Assembly (NCBI GenBank): GCA_964540475.1
Contig: CAZIMC010000001.1
Span: 97,203-161,202 of the forward strand
Length of the DNA stretch: 64,000 bases
Direction: 5' to 3'
DNA from: an uncultured Gammaproteobacteria bacterium
Lineage (GTDB): Bacteria > Patescibacteriota > Microgenomatia > UBA8517
The position numbers and the translations under genes were made by a program. Of the stretch, positions 3,428 through 23,379 are shown one piece after another. The stretch's first letter is position 1; every line of letters begins with the position of its first letter. The notes under the pieces are model-generated. The model had not been told where the DNA came from. It was given only the letters and a program-made list of their open reading frames with translations, and did no database searches.

Positions 3428-4777
3428 ATGCAAAACAGAGACGATATAAAAAACCAGCAAACTCTTAGTAGAATTGATGACTACTTAAAATCTAATAAGA
3501 ATGACAAAGGCCAAACTTTATCAAAGGATGAAATTGAGGCGTTGCGGTTTGGTAGAAGATTGATTGCCGAGCAGTTAGAAATACCCAGCTATGAAGTCCA
3601 CTGGTCTGACGGTACTACAAAATCTACAAAGATTAGCTTTAAAGACCAAATGGTTCGAATTATCCCTGAGTCCGAGGACGAAATATACGGACAGTATTAC
3701 CACTCTCCTGATAAAAAATACTTTGTTGTCACAAAAGGCAGTTTTTGGACGGACTATGGAAAAACGGAAAAATTCACTAAGGGATGGGTGTTTCTTTTTG
3801 AGGGCAATACAAAATGCCTTTGGAAAAAAGAGTTTATCGCACCTGATAAGGCATATGTAAATAACAATGGCAATGTTGTTGTAATTGACTCACTTAATAC
3901 TGATTATGGCAAGAAGTACACAAGTGGCCTTTTTATTGTTGATAAGACAAACAAAGATATTTTCACCCGTCTGTTTACTTCTATCTTAGACAAGGTCTTA
4001 TACTCGCAAAAAAGAAACGAATTGTTATGTCTAACAAACAATCCGGAGAGAGCGTTTTTTCTTGTCGATCTTGCTACCCAGAAAGTTATTTATAAAGCAA
4101 AATTGAAGCGGGCATTTGAAAAGTGGTATTTAGAAAATGCCAATTATTCATTTAAAGATGACCATATCAATATCTGGAATGAAGATTTGTTTGAACATAT
4201 CCGAACTAGATTGCAAGAGGAGGAGGACATAAAAACGCCATCAGACGATCAGGCAGAACATTTAGAGCATATACAAGTCGAGACTGAGAGAACTACTGAA
4301 GAATATGAGCGAGAGCAATTTTTGGAAATCTATACTAAACCTGAGTTCAGCATTTTTGAAGAGTATGAAATATTAAAATGTGAGAAAGAGGGAAAAGAAT
4401 TCGAAGGCTTGGTATCTGAATACTACTTTGATTATCTTCACTCTATGGGTATTTCCACGATGGACGATTTGCTCAATACAGATATCACGGTGCTTATCAA
4501 CAGGACTGGCGATGGACTCAGACCAGGACCAGGAAGAATATACGGCATCAATAATAGGGTCTCAAGTGAACTTGGAAGACAGCTTAAAGGAATCGAAGAT
4601 TATATTCCTGTATCACCAAGAATAAGAACAGAACTCGAAAAGATTGGTGTTAACAAACTTGGTGATTGTGCTAACTTCTCCAGAAGCGAACTATTAAAAA
4701 TTAAAGGTATAGGTGTAAAAGTGTTGGAATACATATCAAGTGCATTGCAAGAATTTCACCAGAACGAAATAAAATAA
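3428..4777 (+). CDS. hypothetical protein with C-terminal helix-hairpin-helix repeats (RNAP alpha-CTD-like)
   Basis: 449-aa ORF; C-terminal SELLKIKGIGVKVLEYI and DDLLNTDITVLINRTG HhH-like motifs; no other recognisable domain. Confidence 0.5.
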   Translation: MQNRDDIKNQQTLSRIDDYLKSNKNDKGQTLSKDEIEALRFGRRLIAEQLEIPSYEVHWSDGTTKSTKISFKDQMVRIIPESEDEIYGQYYHSPDKKYFVVTKGSFWTDYGKTEKFTKGWVFLFEGNTKCLWKKEFIAPDKAYVNNNGNVVVIDSLNTDYGKKYTSGLFIVDKTNKDIFTRLFTSILDKVLYSQKRNELLCLTNNPERAFFLVDLATQKVIYKAKLKRAFEKWYLENANYSFKDDHINIWNEDLFEHIRTRLQEEEDIKTPSDDQAEHLEHIQVETERTTEEYEREQFLEIYTKPEFSIFEEYEILKCEKEGKEFEGLVSEYYFDYLHSMGISTMDDLLNTDITVLINRTGDGLRPGPGRIYGINNRVSSELGRQLKGIEDYIPVSPRIRTELEKIGVNKLGDCANFSRSELLKIKGIGVKVLEYISSALQEFHQNEIK

Positions 4778-18297: not shown

Positions 18298-19125
18298 TTA
18301 CCAATGAATCCCAATATTTAGCAGTAAATTATAAAATTCCTGCATATTACAAACCCTCGCTACACCCATTTTCTCCAATTCAGTAAATCCTTGAGCTGGG
18401 CGTCGGTTTTTGGAGTCATAATTAACCACCCACTTATATCCTGCCGCTAGGGAGGAGGACACATCAGAAACCAAACTATCACCCATAGCCAAACTTCTTG
18501 TGGGCTCGGCGCGTACGGTCCTAGCACAATCTTTCCAGTGTTCGGGTGTTTTAGCGCTTTTGGTAACGCAGTAAAGCGTGTCAATAAGATTATATATATC
18601 TGCTTCTTCACATTTCCTGACCGCATCCTTTTCTGTCGATAAAGTAATAACCGCAATTTTCCTGTCACATGAGCTAAGCGCGCTAAGCAATTCGACTACG
18701 CCCGGAAAGGGTGGAAAAGGGTCCTGGTAAGCTTTCATCAAATACTCCCAACTCCTCCTCACAGCCTCTTCCTCTATTTCAGGCCAACCCCTCACCATGC
18801 CCTCAACCACCAGGCCCCACCTTCCCGGTTCAGAACCATAGTAATCCAAAGATGCCCTATCAAGCTCCCAAAATATTTCTAGAGCGGTGCTCCTTTCTGA
18901 TTCTTTAATGGATTGAACCAAAATCTCTCCCGCTCTTCTTCTATTTTCCTTAAAGGATTTATCCTGCAATAAAGTACCATCCAAATCAAAAAACAATGCC
19001 TGCAAGTCAATTAAGTCCAGATGTTCTTTTAATTTTTCTTGTTCTAAATGGAATTGCGGAGACTCGGGCTTAAGTCTTTGGCCTTCACTTCTTTCTGGCA
19101 TACATGGGATTATATGAAAAAGCAA
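18298..19125 (-). CDS. HAD-superfamily hydrolase
   Basis: Motif I FFDLDGTLL; 275 aa. The true start may be downstream of the first Met. Confidence 0.6.
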   Translation of the reverse strand: MLFHIIPCMPERSEGQRLKPESPQFHLEQEKLKEHLDLIDLQALFFDLDGTLLQDKSFKENRRRAGEILVQSIKESERSTALEIFWELDRASLDYYGSEPGRWGLVVEGMVRGWPEIEEEAVRRSWEYLMKAYQDPFPPFPGVVELLSALSSCDRKIAVITLSTEKDAVRKCEEADIYNLIDTLYCVTKSAKTPEHWKDCARTVRAEPTRSLAMGDSLVSDVSSSLAAGYKWVVNYDSKNRRPAQGFTELEKMGVARVCNMQEFYNLLLNIGIHW

Positions 19126-19196
19126 GTAAGAAAACGATAAGAAGACGGAAAGAAAACAAATTGATTCAAGCGAATAAATTGACAGTGATTATAACT

Positions 19197-19276
19197 GGGG
19201 TGAGGGAGGGATTCGTGTGCACAGTTGATTCTCACCTTGGCACTATCGAATACCGCACTCAACGCGAGTCTGCGAG
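19197..19276 (-). repeat. tRNA-3'-end direct-repeat module downstream of tRNA-Ser(GGA): 17-bp copy of the tRNA 3' end plus a conserved insert
   Basis: GGTGAGGGAGGGATTCG at 19199..19215 repeats 19278..19294 (tRNA 3' end). Insert carries CTTGGCACTATC and TGTGCACA and is near-identical to the module at 20286..20367. Confidence 0.7.
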
Positions 19277-19363
19277 CGGTGAGGGAGGGATTCGAACCCT
19301 CGGTAACCTTGCGGCTACACACGATCTCCAATCGTGCTCTTTAGACCACTCAGACACCTCACC
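19277..19363 (-). tRNA. tRNA-Ser (anticodon GGA), class II with long variable arm
   Basis: Reverse complement folds as GGTGAGG acceptor, 3-bp D stem, anticodon stem CACGA/TCGTG with loop TTGGAGA, long variable arm, T arm GAGGGTTCGAATCCCTC. Confidence 0.85.
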
Positions 19364-19377
19364 AGAGCTAAATTATA

Positions 19378-19896
19378 TCAAAGTTGATGGGATTTAAGCT
19401 CCAATATCTCTTTTGCCTTTTTTAAAATCTCTTTATCACCCTTAAATGTTAGTTTTGTCAAAGCTTTCTTTAATGGGAAGAATTTGGCTTGCCGGACCTC
19501 TTTGTCGTGATTATTAGTATCTCCGCCGGCATACTTCATCAAATAAAATGTGACGATTTTGAATATCTTTGCACCATCCCAGTGAAAAAAATATTTCTGG
19601 TCGGCAATCTTTTCAATTAAACTTGCTCTCACTCCACACTCCTCCGCTACTTCACGAACAGCGGTAGCCTTTGATGATTCGCCGGGGTCGATATGTCCCT
19701 TGGGAAACTGCCACCGATCGGTTCCTGCAGGATTAATAAGCAACCACTCCATTTTGGCACTGTCAGGGCTTTTTCTGAAAACAATCCCTCCAGCCGAGAA
19801 CTCTCGTTTAAGCGGGGAGCTCGGGTTCTTCCTCTTTTTTGTTTCTTGGGGATTTCTCCCAGATTTTGAGTACTTCTTTTGCATTTTTGAAAACAT
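19378..19896 (-). CDS. Nudix hydrolase
   Basis: Nudix box GHIDPGESSKATAVREVAEECG. The N-terminal K-rich extension may not be translated; overlaps the upstream Nudix gene. Confidence 0.75.
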   Translation of the reverse strand: MFSKMQKKYSKSGRNPQETKKRKNPSSPLKREFSAGGIVFRKSPDSAKMEWLLINPAGTDRWQFPKGHIDPGESSKATAVREVAEECGVRASLIEKIADQKYFFHWDGAKIFKIVTFYLMKYAGGDTNNHDKEVRQAKFFPLKKALTKLTFKGDKEILKKAKEILELKSHQL

Positions 19897-20269
19897 CCTT
19901 TTCTCGCTTTAAATGGACCGCACTACGAGCGCGGCTTAACTCCATCCATTTATAATCGCTAAATCCCAAGACTTCGCCGCCCGCTCGTTGCATCATAAGA
20001 TAATAGTAAAATTTCTGTGAGACCGTTCTACCATTAACTATGGCAGAACCAGTGGTTCTAAATGCCTCTTCCAAAACCCGTGCATTCATTCCGGCCATTT
20101 CACCGGTCATTCTTAAAGCTGCCCTAATGGAGGATTCCCCTCTTCTGACTGTCACTTTGGGTATTTCCCACTTTGCATCATCAGAGATTTTAACCACCAA
20201 AAAGGTCTTTTTCCCATTATTTTCTTTAAAAACCACTGCTCCACTTATAACTATTTGGTTATTTTTCAT
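19808..20269 (-). CDS. Nudix hydrolase
   Basis: Nudix box RRGESSIRAALRMTGEMAG. Start taken at MKNNQ (ATG complement at 20267..20269) because the listed ORF extends through the tRNA and repeat. Confidence 0.75.
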   Translation of the reverse strand: MKNNQIVISGAVVFKENNGKKTFLVVKISDDAKWEIPKVTVRRGESSIRAALRMTGEMAGMNARVLEEAFRTTGSAIVNGRTVSQKFYYYLMMQRAGGEVLGFSDYKWMELSRARSAVHLKREKDVFKNAKEVLKIWEKSPRNKKEEEPELPA

Positions 20270-20285
20270 ATTTATGTTTTCTTCT

Positions 20286-20367
20286 CGTGCGGTGAGGGTG
20301 GGATTCGTGTGCACAACTTCTCTTTGCTTGGCACTATCGAATACCACACTCAACGCGAGTCCATGTG
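20286..20367 (-). repeat. tRNA-3'-end direct-repeat module downstream of tRNA-Ser(TGA): 20-bp copy of the tRNA 3' end plus a conserved insert
   Basis: TGCGGTGAGGGTGGGATTCG at 20288..20307 repeats 20366..20385. Insert shares CTTGGCACTATCGAATACCRCACTCAACGCGAGTC and TGTGCACA with the 19197 module. Confidence 0.7.
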
Positions 20368-20456
20368 CGGTGAGGGTGGGATTCGAACCCACGGTAACGA
20401 AAATTCGCTACGTCGGTTTTCAAAACCGATGCACTAGTCCGCTATGCGACCTCACC
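20368..20456 (-). tRNA. tRNA-Ser (anticodon TGA), class II
   Basis: Reverse complement GGTGAGGTCGCATAGCGGACTAGTGCATCGGTTTTGAAAACCGACG...GGGTTCGAATCCCACCCTCACCG. Anticodon stem TCGGT/ACCGA, loop TTTGAAA. Confidence 0.85.
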
Positions 20457-20506
20457 GAGTCTGCGAGGTGAGTAGCACAAGCTTGCCTTATGCGACCTCA
20501 CCCCAA
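20443..20506 (-). repeat. 14-bp direct duplication of the tRNA-Ser(TGA) 5' end, 50 bp upstream of the gene
   Basis: TATGCGACCTCACC at 20443..20456 (tRNA 5' end, plus-strand view) and again at 20493..20506. The intervening GAGTCTGCGAG also occurs at 19267..19277. Confidence 0.6.
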
Positions 20507-20529
20507 TCTACCATTGCCGCACCTTAGAG

Positions 20530-20618
20530 CGGTAGGGACAGGATTCGAACCTGCGCGAGGGGTATTAACCCTCAAGGGTTTAGCAAACCCTCGCCTTAGA
20601 CCGCTCGGCCACCCTACC
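20530..20618 (-). tRNA. tRNA-Ser (anticodon GCT), class II
   Basis: Reverse complement GGTAGGGTGGCCGAGCGGTCTAAGGCGAGGGTTTGCTAAACCCT...GCAGGTTCGAATCCTGTCCCTACCG. Anticodon stem AGGGT/ACCCT, loop TTGCTAA. Confidence 0.85.
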
Positions 20619-20630
20619 ACAAGCGTGCAT

Positions 20631-20668
20631 ATTATACCAGAATCACCGGTTGGAACGAAGCCTTAATT
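20631..20668 (-). promoter_or_regulatory. putative sigma-70 promoter (extended -10 TGGTATAAT) for the minus-strand tRNA-Ser(GCT)/(TGA) genes
   Basis: Minus-strand TTCGTT, 17-nt spacer, TGGTATAAT, ending about 12 nt before the tRNA 5' end. Confidence 0.35.
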
Positions 20669-20680
20669 TGGGATATAATA

Positions 20681-21226
20681 ATGCGTAGCATGCCCGAGGA
20701 CTTAAGTGAGAGCACATTAAAAGAAAATGTTGTTGAGCCTATTGCAAAAACCGAGCCTGAGACTGATCTAGTTGTTTGGGTAGCGCCAGCTCGACCCTTC
20801 AAAAGGCGTAACAGACAGTTTTATGTCACCTTAATTGCCACAGCCTCGATAGTGGGGCTAGTGCTGTTCTTTGTAGAAGGATGGGTACCGGTTGTTCTTA
20901 TTATTTCTTTAATTTTTTTGTTTTATGTAATGTCAACGGTCCCCCCGGAAGATATCGAGTATAAAATTACCAATAAAGGCATAAAAATTGCAGGCAGAAG
21001 ATCAGATTGGGAAACCCTCGGCAGGTTCTGGTTTAGCAGAAGATTTGACACCAGGCTCTTGGTTATAGAGACTTATACAATTCCAGGCAGAATCGAACTG
21101 GTAATTGAGCCTTATAAAAATGAGGAGATCCAGAGCGCAATCGCTAAGTTTTTGGTGCATGAAGAAATTCCACCTTCAAACCTGGATAAGGCCGCGGTTT
21201 GGTTTGCTAAAAAACTCCCTCAATAA
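20681..21226 (+). CDS. hypothetical membrane protein (two TM helices)
   Basis: 181-aa ORF with TM stretch VTLIATASIVGLVLFFVEGWVPVVLIISLIFLFYVM. Confidence 0.45.
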   Translation: MRSMPEDLSESTLKENVVEPIAKTEPETDLVVWVAPARPFKRRNRQFYVTLIATASIVGLVLFFVEGWVPVVLIISLIFLFYVMSTVPPEDIEYKITNKGIKIAGRRSDWETLGRFWFSRRFDTRLLVIETYTIPGRIELVIEPYKNEEIQSAIAKFLVHEEIPPSNLDKAAVWFAKKLPQ

Positions 21227-22575: not shown

Positions 22576-22944
22576 GGGGGCGACCGGTTTCGACGGAATG
22601 TACTTTAACAAACTGCAAGCCGAGTTTGATTCAAACTCGTAAAACAGAATCAAAACCTTAAGCGTCAATACAAAAAACGCTCCAGCTTATGCTGGCGTAA
22701 GCAATTACGCTTTCGCCTAAGCGGTGTCTTCTATTTCGCATCCTGATCGAATTAGAAAGGCATAAACCAATCGGGATCGGTTTTTGGTTGCTGGTTGTAG
22801 GCCCGAAACTTAAATACAACTAACCTTACTTTTTGGTTTCCAGTTAATCGGTTAGCCTTAAAGGAAATTGCTGGATTAACTAAGCTTGTAGTAGTTTTCT
22901 AAAGGAATTTTCGGATGAGGGTTCAATTCCCTCCGCCTCCACTC
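22576..22944 (+). ncRNA. ssrA: tmRNA (ssrA)
   Basis: 5' GGGGGCGACCGGTTTCGACGG and 3' GGTTCAATTCCCTCCGCCTCCA can form a tRNA-like acceptor. Internal tag-like reading frame ends ...NYAFA-stop. Directly follows smpB. Confidence 0.85.
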
Positions 22945-23025
22945 ACATTCGTTCGTTTCGTCTCCAGGACTTGATAGTGCCAAGATTGGTAATGCTGTGC
23001 ACGCAATTCCCTCCGCCTCCACACT
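22945..23025 (+). repeat. tmRNA-3'-end direct-repeat module: 19-bp copy of the ssrA 3' end 80 bp downstream, with the same insert motifs as the tRNA-Ser modules
   Basis: CAATTCCCTCCGCCTCCAC at 22924..22942 and at 23004..23022. Insert contains GATAGTGCCAAG (22973..22984) and TGTGCAC (22996..23002). Confidence 0.7.
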
Positions 23026-23142: not shown

Positions 23143-23379
23143 ATGTTTTACGTATATATTCTCCAGCTAACAGAAGGTTCGTTTTACGTTGGTTACTCTA
23201 CGGATCTTGTTAAGAGAATGAAATACCATAAAACCGGGAAAGTGATATCAACAAGTAATTCGAAGTCCCTAATTCTTGTGTTTTATGCTGCCTTTAAAAA
23301 TAAATCTAAAGCTATTAACTTTGAAAAGTACCTCAAATCGAGTTCTGGCTCAGCTTTCAGAAGCAAACGGCTAATTTAA
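23143..23379 (+). CDS. small GIY-YIG nuclease-superfamily protein (COG2827-like)
   Basis: YVYILQLTEGSFYVGYSTDLVKRMKYHKTG matches the GIY...YIG motifs plus conserved R and H residues; 78 aa. Confidence 0.65.
   Translation: MFYVYILQLTEGSFYVGYSTDLVKRMKYHKTGKVISTSNSKSLILVFYAAFKNKSKAINFEKYLKSSSGSAFRSKRLI

Follow-up and report, generated by a model that had tools for sequence, protein, structure and literature searches.

RtT-like miniature inserts that duplicate the 3' ends of tRNA and tmRNA genes in Microgenomates

INTRODUCTION

How does a tRNA gene come to be followed, only about 60 bp downstream, by a second copy of its own 3' end? The question is raised by a 64,000-nucleotide (nt) stretch of contig CAZIMC010000001.1 (positions 97,203 to 161,202; GTDB lineage Patescibacteriota, Microgenomatia, UBA8517), referred to here as the window, whose coordinates are used throughout unless a locus is named. 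In this window, tRNA-Ser(GGA) and tRNA-Ser(TGA) each carry such a copy. The 3' ends of tRNA and transfer-messenger RNA (tmRNA) genes are classic landing sites of mobile DNA, and an earlier note on the same stretch offered three explanations for the duplications: scars of integrative elements that had been almost completely deleted, a miniature tRNA-targeting element, or a functional RNA appended to the tRNAs. We report that the two inserts belong to a family of short elements with about 60 further copies behind tRNA and tmRNA genes. The family is a new, miniature, multi-host variant of the RtT-type tRNA-tail repeat, in which each copy is matched to its own gene. All annotated genomes that carry it are Microgenomates, of the candidate phyla radiation (CPR).

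RESULTS AND DISCUSSION

Two tRNA-Ser genes with duplicated tails

At tRNA-Ser(GGA) (19276..19363, minus strand; ARAGORN, and Rfam tRNA at 58 bits), where G73 is position 19277 and C74 is 19276, the duplication was confirmed as first described: the 17 nt GGTGAGGGAGGGATTCG at 19278-19294 recur exactly at 19199-19215, with a start-to-start spacing of 79. At tRNA-Ser(TGA) (20367..20456, minus strand; ARAGORN and Rfam), the copy is likewise exact and the spacing is 78, but the repeat is 21 nt long, not 20 (20365-20385 and 20287-20307). Both repeats start at C56 in the T-loop, and each copy carries the T-stem variant of its own tRNA (CCCTC versus CCCAC). The repeats do stand only about 60 bp apart, with an insert of about 61 nt behind each gene, and the inserts are near-identical: both contain GACTCGCGTTGAGTG[C/T]GGTATTCGATAGTGCCAAG, about 13 variable nt, and then TGTGCACA. 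The 19-mer GGTATTCGATAGTGCCAAG has just two occurrences in the window, both in the tRNA-Ser inserts, with 0 expected in shuffles.

The earlier note did not recognize that the duplicated tRNA end is also present, inverted and imperfect, in the 5' part of the insert (GCGUUGAGUGYGGUAUUCG). Because of this, each trailer behind a tRNA-Ser gene is predicted to fold as a long hairpin, made of this 5' arm, an inner stem GUGC/GCAC that closes on a variable loop, and the second copy of the tRNA end. The trailer hairpin of tRNA-Ser(TGA) has a z score of −3.4, and the tRNA cloverleaf is retained in the predicted fold of the whole transcript.

Naming the tRNA's own end X1 and the downstream copy X2, element 1 reads along the minus strand as X1 (nt 56-72, CGAATCCCTCCCTCACC, 19278..19294), a leader (TCGCAGACTC, 19266..19275) that together with C74 reads CTCG and matches the CTCR start of the family, a 5' arm (GCGTTGAGTGCGGTATTCG, 19247..19265) identified from folds, arm/X alignment, and covariation as an imperfect reverse complement of nt 56-74, a core (ATAGTGCC, a variable loop, and TGTGCACA, with the inner stem GUGC/GCAC; 19216..19246), and X2, the exact 17-nt copy of nt 56-72 (19199..19215), after which C replaces G73 and the native flank begins. 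Element 2 follows the same plan on the minus strand: X1 comprises nt 56-74 plus 2 nt (CGAATCCCACCCTCACCGCAC, 20365..20385), the remainder of the leader is ATGGACTC (20357..20364), the arm, from sequence and folds, is GCGTTGAGTGTGGTATTCG (20338..20356), the core is again ATAGTGCC, a loop, and TGTGCACA (20308..20337), and the exact 21-nt X2 (20287..20307) is followed by a NUDIX gene (ATG at 20269). The two arms differ at one position, T for C, which lies opposite the tRNA-specific A of CCCAC.

A family spread over many tRNA types

Searching for further copies, one of the checks proposed in the earlier note, turned up a third in the window and about 60 elsewhere, by pattern scan and covariance model. 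The third lies on the plus strand behind the tmRNA gene (22576..22942; ARAGORN and Rfam), whose 3' end, CAATTCCCTCCGCCTCCAC (22924-22942), serves as X1. Its insert (22943..23003) consists of a leader (TCACATTCGTTC, 22943-22954), an arm (GTTTCGTCTCCAGGACTTG, 22955-22973), and a core (ATAGTGCC...GTGCACG, 22974-23003), and is followed by an exact 19-nt copy of the tmRNA 3' end (23004..23022). The covariance model matches 22944-23023 with 47.1 bits (E = 2.6e-8).

The source of the window is a Woesebacteria-like member of the Microgenomates, and its DnaG protein is at most 55% identical to those of GTDB species representatives. In relatives, the neighborhood of dnaG is a conserved cluster with four tRNA-Ser genes and NUDIX genes, and in an unbiased sample of such dnaG-linked clusters a trailer of the same kind was present on 13 of 106 tRNA-Ser genes, of any isoacceptor. 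The first 18 matches had suggested specificity for tRNA-Ser, which was ruled out by scanning metagenome contigs with the pattern TCGATAGTGC-N15-45-TGCAC-N1-2-CGAMTCC. Among the 44 loci recovered (loci outside the window are identified by L numbers), 39 had the match 16 to 29 nt behind a same-strand tRNA gene, and the hosts represented 11 amino acid types (Tyr, Lys, Ser, Leu, Glu, Gln, Pro, Val, His, Thr, and Trp). The other five were three GC-rich chance matches and two loci in which the tRNA was cut off or absent (L083 and L104). In every true case the arm matches the 3' end of its own tRNA, and X2 repeats 19 to 24 nt of the tRNA end, exactly in nearly all and with one or two mismatches in a few (His and Trp). 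A covariance model built from ten copies returned 49 strong copies, including the tmRNA-linked copy of the window and a second tmRNA-linked copy at L092. Beyond the three in the window, the hosts of the roughly 60 copies comprise the 11 types above, tRNA-Gly, and tmRNA genes.

All copies have four parts in the same order: a leader starting CTCR, an arm imperfectly reverse-complementary to host nt 56-74, a conserved stem-loop (TCGATAGTGC...TGCAC), and a near-verbatim repeat of nt 56-74. The leader occupies 10 to 12 nt after the discriminator and C74 and ends in (A/G)CTCG; CTCG or CTCA was found at nt 74-77 of 38 of 57 element-bearing tRNAs, versus 21 of 193 element-free ones. Beyond the arm come TCGATAGTGC, a loop often holding AAGGA, TGCAC with one or two further bases, and X2. 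Insert size is uniform, at 59 to 68 nt, and the whole module is about 80 nt long. Two sequence families share this one architecture. In family A, to which the window copies belong, the core reads TTCGATAGTGC...TTTGCAC(GG or A) and is followed by CGAAT of the copy, and in family B it reads GGGAYGAGAAGTTTAYCCGCC...GGCGG, followed by GAGTCCC (Shapirobacteria loci L033 and L037, and L015). Family B spans L033 5527-7868, L037 98-1413, and L015 286-393, and some of its copies have an extra hairpin of about 55 nt at the tip.

Such uniformity bears on the idea that each duplication is an independent local accident, either an attL/attR remnant of a decayed island or a direct-inverted-direct triplication left by replication template switching at the T-loop. 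The T-loop sequence TTCGAA is palindromic, a double template switch yields the order X, inverted X, X, and islands in tRNA genes leave displaced 3' fragments (PMC4383910). Against this, the leader and core are homologous over about 60 loci and a dozen tRNA types, within the narrow size range given above. Because leader and core are common to all copies, local accidents are very unlikely. The scars of nearly deleted integrative elements proposed earlier fail on the same grounds, as size, order of parts, and core recur in about 60 copies at a dozen tRNA types and tmRNA.

The inserts are added DNA

The element leaves its host gene intact: nt 56-74 are present twice, with X1 completing the gene and X2 keeping the original downstream context. 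Variants lacking the insert, which the earlier note had suggested looking for, exist. In a syntenic relative (L053-L062), whose NUDIX protein is 64% identical, tRNA-Ser(TGA) ends directly in CCA and the NUDIX ATG follows. Among 50 nonredundant elements, CCA is encoded after X1 in 1 case and after X2 in 10, compared with 44 of 198 element-free tRNAs (P = 3e-4 for X1 versus element-free; P = 0.85 for X2 versus element-free). The frequency of CCA after X2, like that of element-free genes, indicates that X2 and its flank are the context of the native gene end, and this native context together with the empty sites in relatives shows that DNA was inserted. The elements are therefore inserted DNA that duplicates nt 56-74, and the attL/attR-like geometry recognized in the earlier note, with a repeat running from the T-loop to just past the discriminator, was correctly seen. 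As a separate observation on tRNA genes of this lineage, C74 is encoded in 197 of 198 element-free genes and the full CCA in only 22%, an unusual 3' context.

The module can be lost, tandemly duplicated, truncated, and moved to other tRNA genes. Tandem copies are present at L066 and at L090, where the two units are identical; at L008, L076, L088, L064 (Val), and, in family B, L033, there is a left half but neither its right half nor X2; and short remnants persist at L004, L010, and L025. In 24 of the 36 cases with at least 75% identity, the copy on another contig that is most similar in leader and core belongs to a tRNA of another type. For example, the copies behind tRNA-Ser(GCT) at L011 and tRNA-Leu(TAA) at L073 are 94% identical in leader and core, including the variable leader and loop positions; their arms and X sequences are unrelated, and both fold.

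The earlier note suggested looking for a tyrosine or serine recombinase elsewhere in the genome. Near the copies, no recombinase was seen among the 25 most frequent families of the 108 neighboring open reading frames (ORFs). The families common to these ORFs are housekeeping genes. A viral or plasmid parent element was also considered and rejected, as the sole match in viral contigs lies on a contig of 62,375 nt, equal in length to the one that holds a GC-rich, tRNA-less chance match (L099).

A covarying hairpin matched to each host

In an alignment of 49 copies, 82.4% of cells were paired, versus 19 to 52% in slid controls. Changes on both sides of a pair were observed in 148 cells, compared with 55 ± 8 in shuffles (0 of 500 shuffles reached 148), and compensatory change was found at 14 of 21 pairs. 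Covariation was also evident in an unfitted 10-sequence MAFFT alignment. At one arm position no pair is more common than G.U, which is also frequent in the inner stem, and these frequencies favor folding of the tRNA-sense strand. About 20 to 25% of arm positions are mismatched, with clusters at X positions 60/61, 65, and 71, and most mismatches are U in the arm opposite C.

In Lys tRNAs with a G2.U71 pair, A stands opposite U71 in 6 of 8 arms (read from the alignments), indicating that the arm is complementary to X and does not descend from the 5' strand of the tRNA itself. A pseudo- or mini-tRNA formed by internal deletion of a duplicated tRNA gene was ruled out on this basis, since at G.U positions the arm complements X and does not match the tRNA's 5' strand. 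Other candidate identities were also rejected. A small ORF, or a start codon or ribosome-binding site for NUDIX, was suggested by in-frame starts in the TGA copy of the window and in L011, but inspection showed that the frame is not kept elsewhere. As for an intrinsic terminator or promoter, no T-run lies behind the hairpins and a scan gave no site in the elements. Defining motifs of kink-turns, C/D boxes, and bulge-helix-bulge introns were not seen by eye.

Could the hairpin be a selected functional RNA, a mimic of the tRNA tail resembling an acceptor/T-arm minihelix that the host keeps to signal processing or provide insulation within tRNA operons, or to act in regulation as a small RNA? We regard this as the main rival to the interpretation favored below, though less likely. 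The strong covariation with G.U pairs on the tRNA-sense strand, the non-random mismatch positions, the continued identity of X2 to the tRNA end, and the conservation of the core and of the loop motif AAGGA all point in this direction, as does the placement of copies, always on the tRNA strand, inside tRNA operons, and among housekeeping genes. There are also precedents: RtT of Escherichia coli has the same closing stem, formed by an arm and the tRNA-Tyr end, and is listed as an RNA (RF00391; small RNA gene rttR), and the tRNA-like t-elements of plant mitochondria are processing signals for RNase P and RNase Z (PMC1920247). To this extent, the appended functional RNA envisaged in the earlier note draws support from the covarying hairpin, the strand preference of its G.U pairs, and the E. 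coli look-alike. On the other side, presence is patchy among orthologous tRNA-Ser genes (the 13 of 106 above) and the empty site works in the syntenic relative, some copies survive as truncated halves and one does not fold, unrelated tRNAs carry the same leader and core, and a verbatim tRNA tail would be superfluous in a processing hairpin. The t-elements (PMC1920247) and mascRNA likewise place an acceptor/T-arm-like helix, a possible cleavage site for RNase P and RNase Z, within polycistronic transcripts, but they mimic a generic tRNA shape, not the verbatim tail of a neighbor with an antisense arm.

Comparison with known repeats, islands, and folded attachment sites

The closest known system is the set of 178-bp repeats at E. 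coli tyrT/tyrV (RtT RNA), which shares the architecture and is not the same family. They were recorded no later than 1991 (Bosl and Kersten, as cited in PMC3318445). In E. coli K-12, units follow tyrV at 178-bp spacing and one lies between tyrT and tyrV. By inspection, each unit ends in AATCCTTCCCCCACCACCA, the verbatim last 19 nt of tRNA-Tyr, and the units score 133 to 138 bits with the RtT model, for which the gathering score is 45 bits. In the Rfam consensus structure, an upstream antisense segment, GGGGAAGG, pairs with CCUUCCCC of the tail copy. RtT and the CPR elements are thus alike in standing behind a tRNA gene, in ending with a verbatim copy of its tail, in having a closing stem between an antisense arm and that copy, and in forming tandem units. 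Short matches are also present, as the start of the RtT unit, TCACTTTC, matches family A leaders such as TCACTTTCGTTCG, and GGAUGAGAAG, which follows the RtT arm, matches the family B motif GGGAYGAGAAG.

The differences lie in scale and range. RtT units are 178 bp long, are annotated only behind tRNA-Tyr in E. coli, and have an arm of about 8 nt and a copy that includes CCA, whereas the CPR elements are about 80 nt long, occur at a dozen tRNA types and tmRNA, and have an arm that spans nt 56-74. No Rfam family matches the inserts at gathering score in the window, and the RtT model also gave no match at E ≤ 10 in 19100-20700 or L033. Conversely, the family A covariance model found nothing significant at the E. 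coli locus. To our knowledge, neither the origin nor the role of the RtT repeats is settled. Full-text literature searches found no description of the CPR element family.

Islands integrated into tRNA and tmRNA genes (Islander, PMC4383910) resemble the elements in their 3' target, the direct repeat from T-loop to 3' end, restoration of the gene, and displacement of the original end, and tycheposons (bioRxiv 10.1101/2020.12.28.424599) resemble them in their tandem tRNA-anchored arrays. The repeat by which Islander recognizes islands is present at the CPR elements, but the inserts, at 59 to 68 nt, contain no integrase. They also differ from islands in carrying a host-matched antisense hairpin arm and in that one sequence family serves many tRNAs. 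Miniature inverted-repeat transposable elements (MITEs), repetitive extragenic palindromic sequences, and other small palindromic repeats are short, noncoding, palindromic, and multicopy and show presence/absence polymorphism. The CPR elements share all of these traits, but their position is strict, and their arms differ from copy to copy and track the host gene. The arms are not conserved between copies as those of a MITE would be, and the duplication, of about 19 nt, lies at fixed tRNA positions.

Integron attC sites and the attP(+) site of CTX phage are imperfect hairpins of 60 to 140 nt, with conserved structure and variable sequence or tip, in which one arm is shared with the integration site. 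By analogy, the elements could be folded single-strand attachment sites on tRNA 3' ends, with the arm:X stem mimicking a duplex attB, the 60-nt copies being cassettes without ORFs and larger cassettes carrying genes; we consider this improbable. The imperfect hairpins with fixed mismatch positions and a variable tip do recall attC, and tandem arrays exist. A candidate cassette is found at L077 (984-2766, minus strand), where the order is tRNA-Gln, X, element, X, two ORFs, a second arm-core, and X3, with the same tRNA-Gln tail at both elements. The ORFs encode 287 amino acids (aa; weak match to DUF4145) and 276 aa (weak match to TPR), both below the Pfam cutoff. At L023, a right half-core leads into a third X, 1.2 kb downstream, and a block of unannotated genes at L104 ends in an orphan hairpin. 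ORF-bearing units were seen only at L077 and perhaps at L104 and L023. Cargo is present in only 2 or 3 of about 60 copies, and it could represent unrelated insertions into tandem elements. No integrase was seen adjoining any array among the 25 families mentioned above. No R'/R'' boxes like those of attC were recognized: the tRNA-Ser arms contain GTTGAGT, the opposite arm lacks RYYYAAC, and other copies lack both, as judged by eye with no attC model or pattern search run.

Origin and possible role of the module

The interpretation that we favor, and to which we would give about an even chance, is that the family consists of small, non-autonomous, RtT-like insertion modules in tRNA and tmRNA 3' ends, whose hairpin masks the extra tail in the transcript. 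A unit of leader, core, and arm would pass from one tRNA gene to another through recombination at the T-loop and 3' end, which are nearly universal, and templated correction within the imperfect palindrome would then bring its arm into agreement with the new host. The element would be cotranscribed with its tRNA, and the hairpin would sequester the surplus tail, which would otherwise compete equally with X1 for tRNA 5' strands. The stem resembles the acceptor/T helix and terminates at a discriminator, and for this reason tRNA 3'-end enzymes may also cut at the element, which would release a small hairpin RNA. The tmRNA-linked copy of the window illustrates a possible early stage. Its X2 is exact, its arm is complementary to X at only 10 of 19 positions, and it folds poorly (z = +1.55), as expected if the arm is adjusted after insertion.

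Several points weigh against this interpretation. The non-random positions of arm mismatches hint at a selected structure and hence at a function. Over nt 56-73, X1 and X2 are identical in 36 of 50 elements and differ at one position in 9 and at two in 5, while arms are mismatched at about 20 to 25% of positions; simple neutral persistence does not account for this, and frequent turnover, gene conversion, or selection is needed. The templated re-matching of the arm is something that we infer and did not observe. No reverse transcriptase or transposase, and as noted no recombinase, appeared among the 25 most frequent families of neighboring ORFs, a list in which single occurrences may be hidden. 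Finally, no copy was found in viral contigs, where the sole match was apparently due to chance.

A bolder possibility is that the module matches itself to its target as it moves. The leader and core, about 45 nt, would pass between tRNA and tmRNA genes and acquire a verbatim and an antisense copy of nt 56-74 each time, either by copying the tRNA tail itself through end-to-end template jumping or by way of a folded single-strand attachment site. We think this unlikely. If true, it would amount to a tRNA-anchored integration system of integron-like or retro type in the CPR, and the RtT of E. coli could be what is left of an element of this kind. Of the three options in the earlier note, the miniature tRNA-targeting element comes closest to our preferred interpretation of RtT-like insertion modules, although no recombinase accompanies the copies in the families surveyed and the host-matched antisense arm had escaped notice. 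Whichever reading holds, the roughly 60 natural variants make it possible to ask how tail duplications arise, how the inverted copy stays matched, and whether a released hairpin RNA functions.

Gene calling and neighboring features

These elements mislead gene callers and could be mistaken for att sites of lost prophages. For example, NCBI protein P0001 is identical over the entire NUDIX query and is 194 aa long, which is also the length of an ORF in the window that begins within tRNA-Ser(TGA), at a GTG, and continues through the element. In the relative with the empty site (L053-L062, near position 4000), the NUDIX ATG abuts the CCA of tRNA-Ser(TGA) without a spacer, which implies a cotranscribed leaderless or tRNA-led mRNA.

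The spacer between tRNA-Ser(GCT) and tRNA-Ser(TGA) (20457..20528, minus strand) contains a 14-nt copy of the 5' end of tRNA-Ser(TGA) (20489-20502), CTCACC, and the leader sequence TCGCAGACTC abutting the tRNA. The 12-mer CGAGTCTGCGAG from the tRNA-Ser(GGA) leader recurs here, at 20456-20467, immediately upstream of tRNA-Ser(TGA). This spacer is probably a rearranged remnant of the same system, in which an element arm appears to have been rearranged with the 5' strand of the tRNA that it resembles.

In the tmRNA-linked element, the inner arm, CAGGACTTG, would be a better match for the T arm of Leu type found in L082 (CAAGTCCTG) than for its tmRNA host. An ORF of 78 aa that appears GIY-YIG-like by eye lies 120 nt past this element (23143-23379, plus strand), and the NUDIX gene of L052, the closest relative, has immediately upstream of it a GIY-YIG gene, identified from precomputed Pfam annotation. 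Free-standing LAGLIDADG-type ORFs also occur beside tRNA genes, between tRNA-Ser(CGA) and tRNA-Arg at L056 (2016-3053) and just upstream of tRNA-Gln(CTG) at L104 (327-1121). A second, unrelated conserved trailer of about 100 nt, reading TCGTCGGAGCTAAAC...CTCCTCTCAAAATTGC...GCAATTTTG, follows many tRNA genes (L003, L009, L010, L012, and L088), and at L009 it comes after X2.

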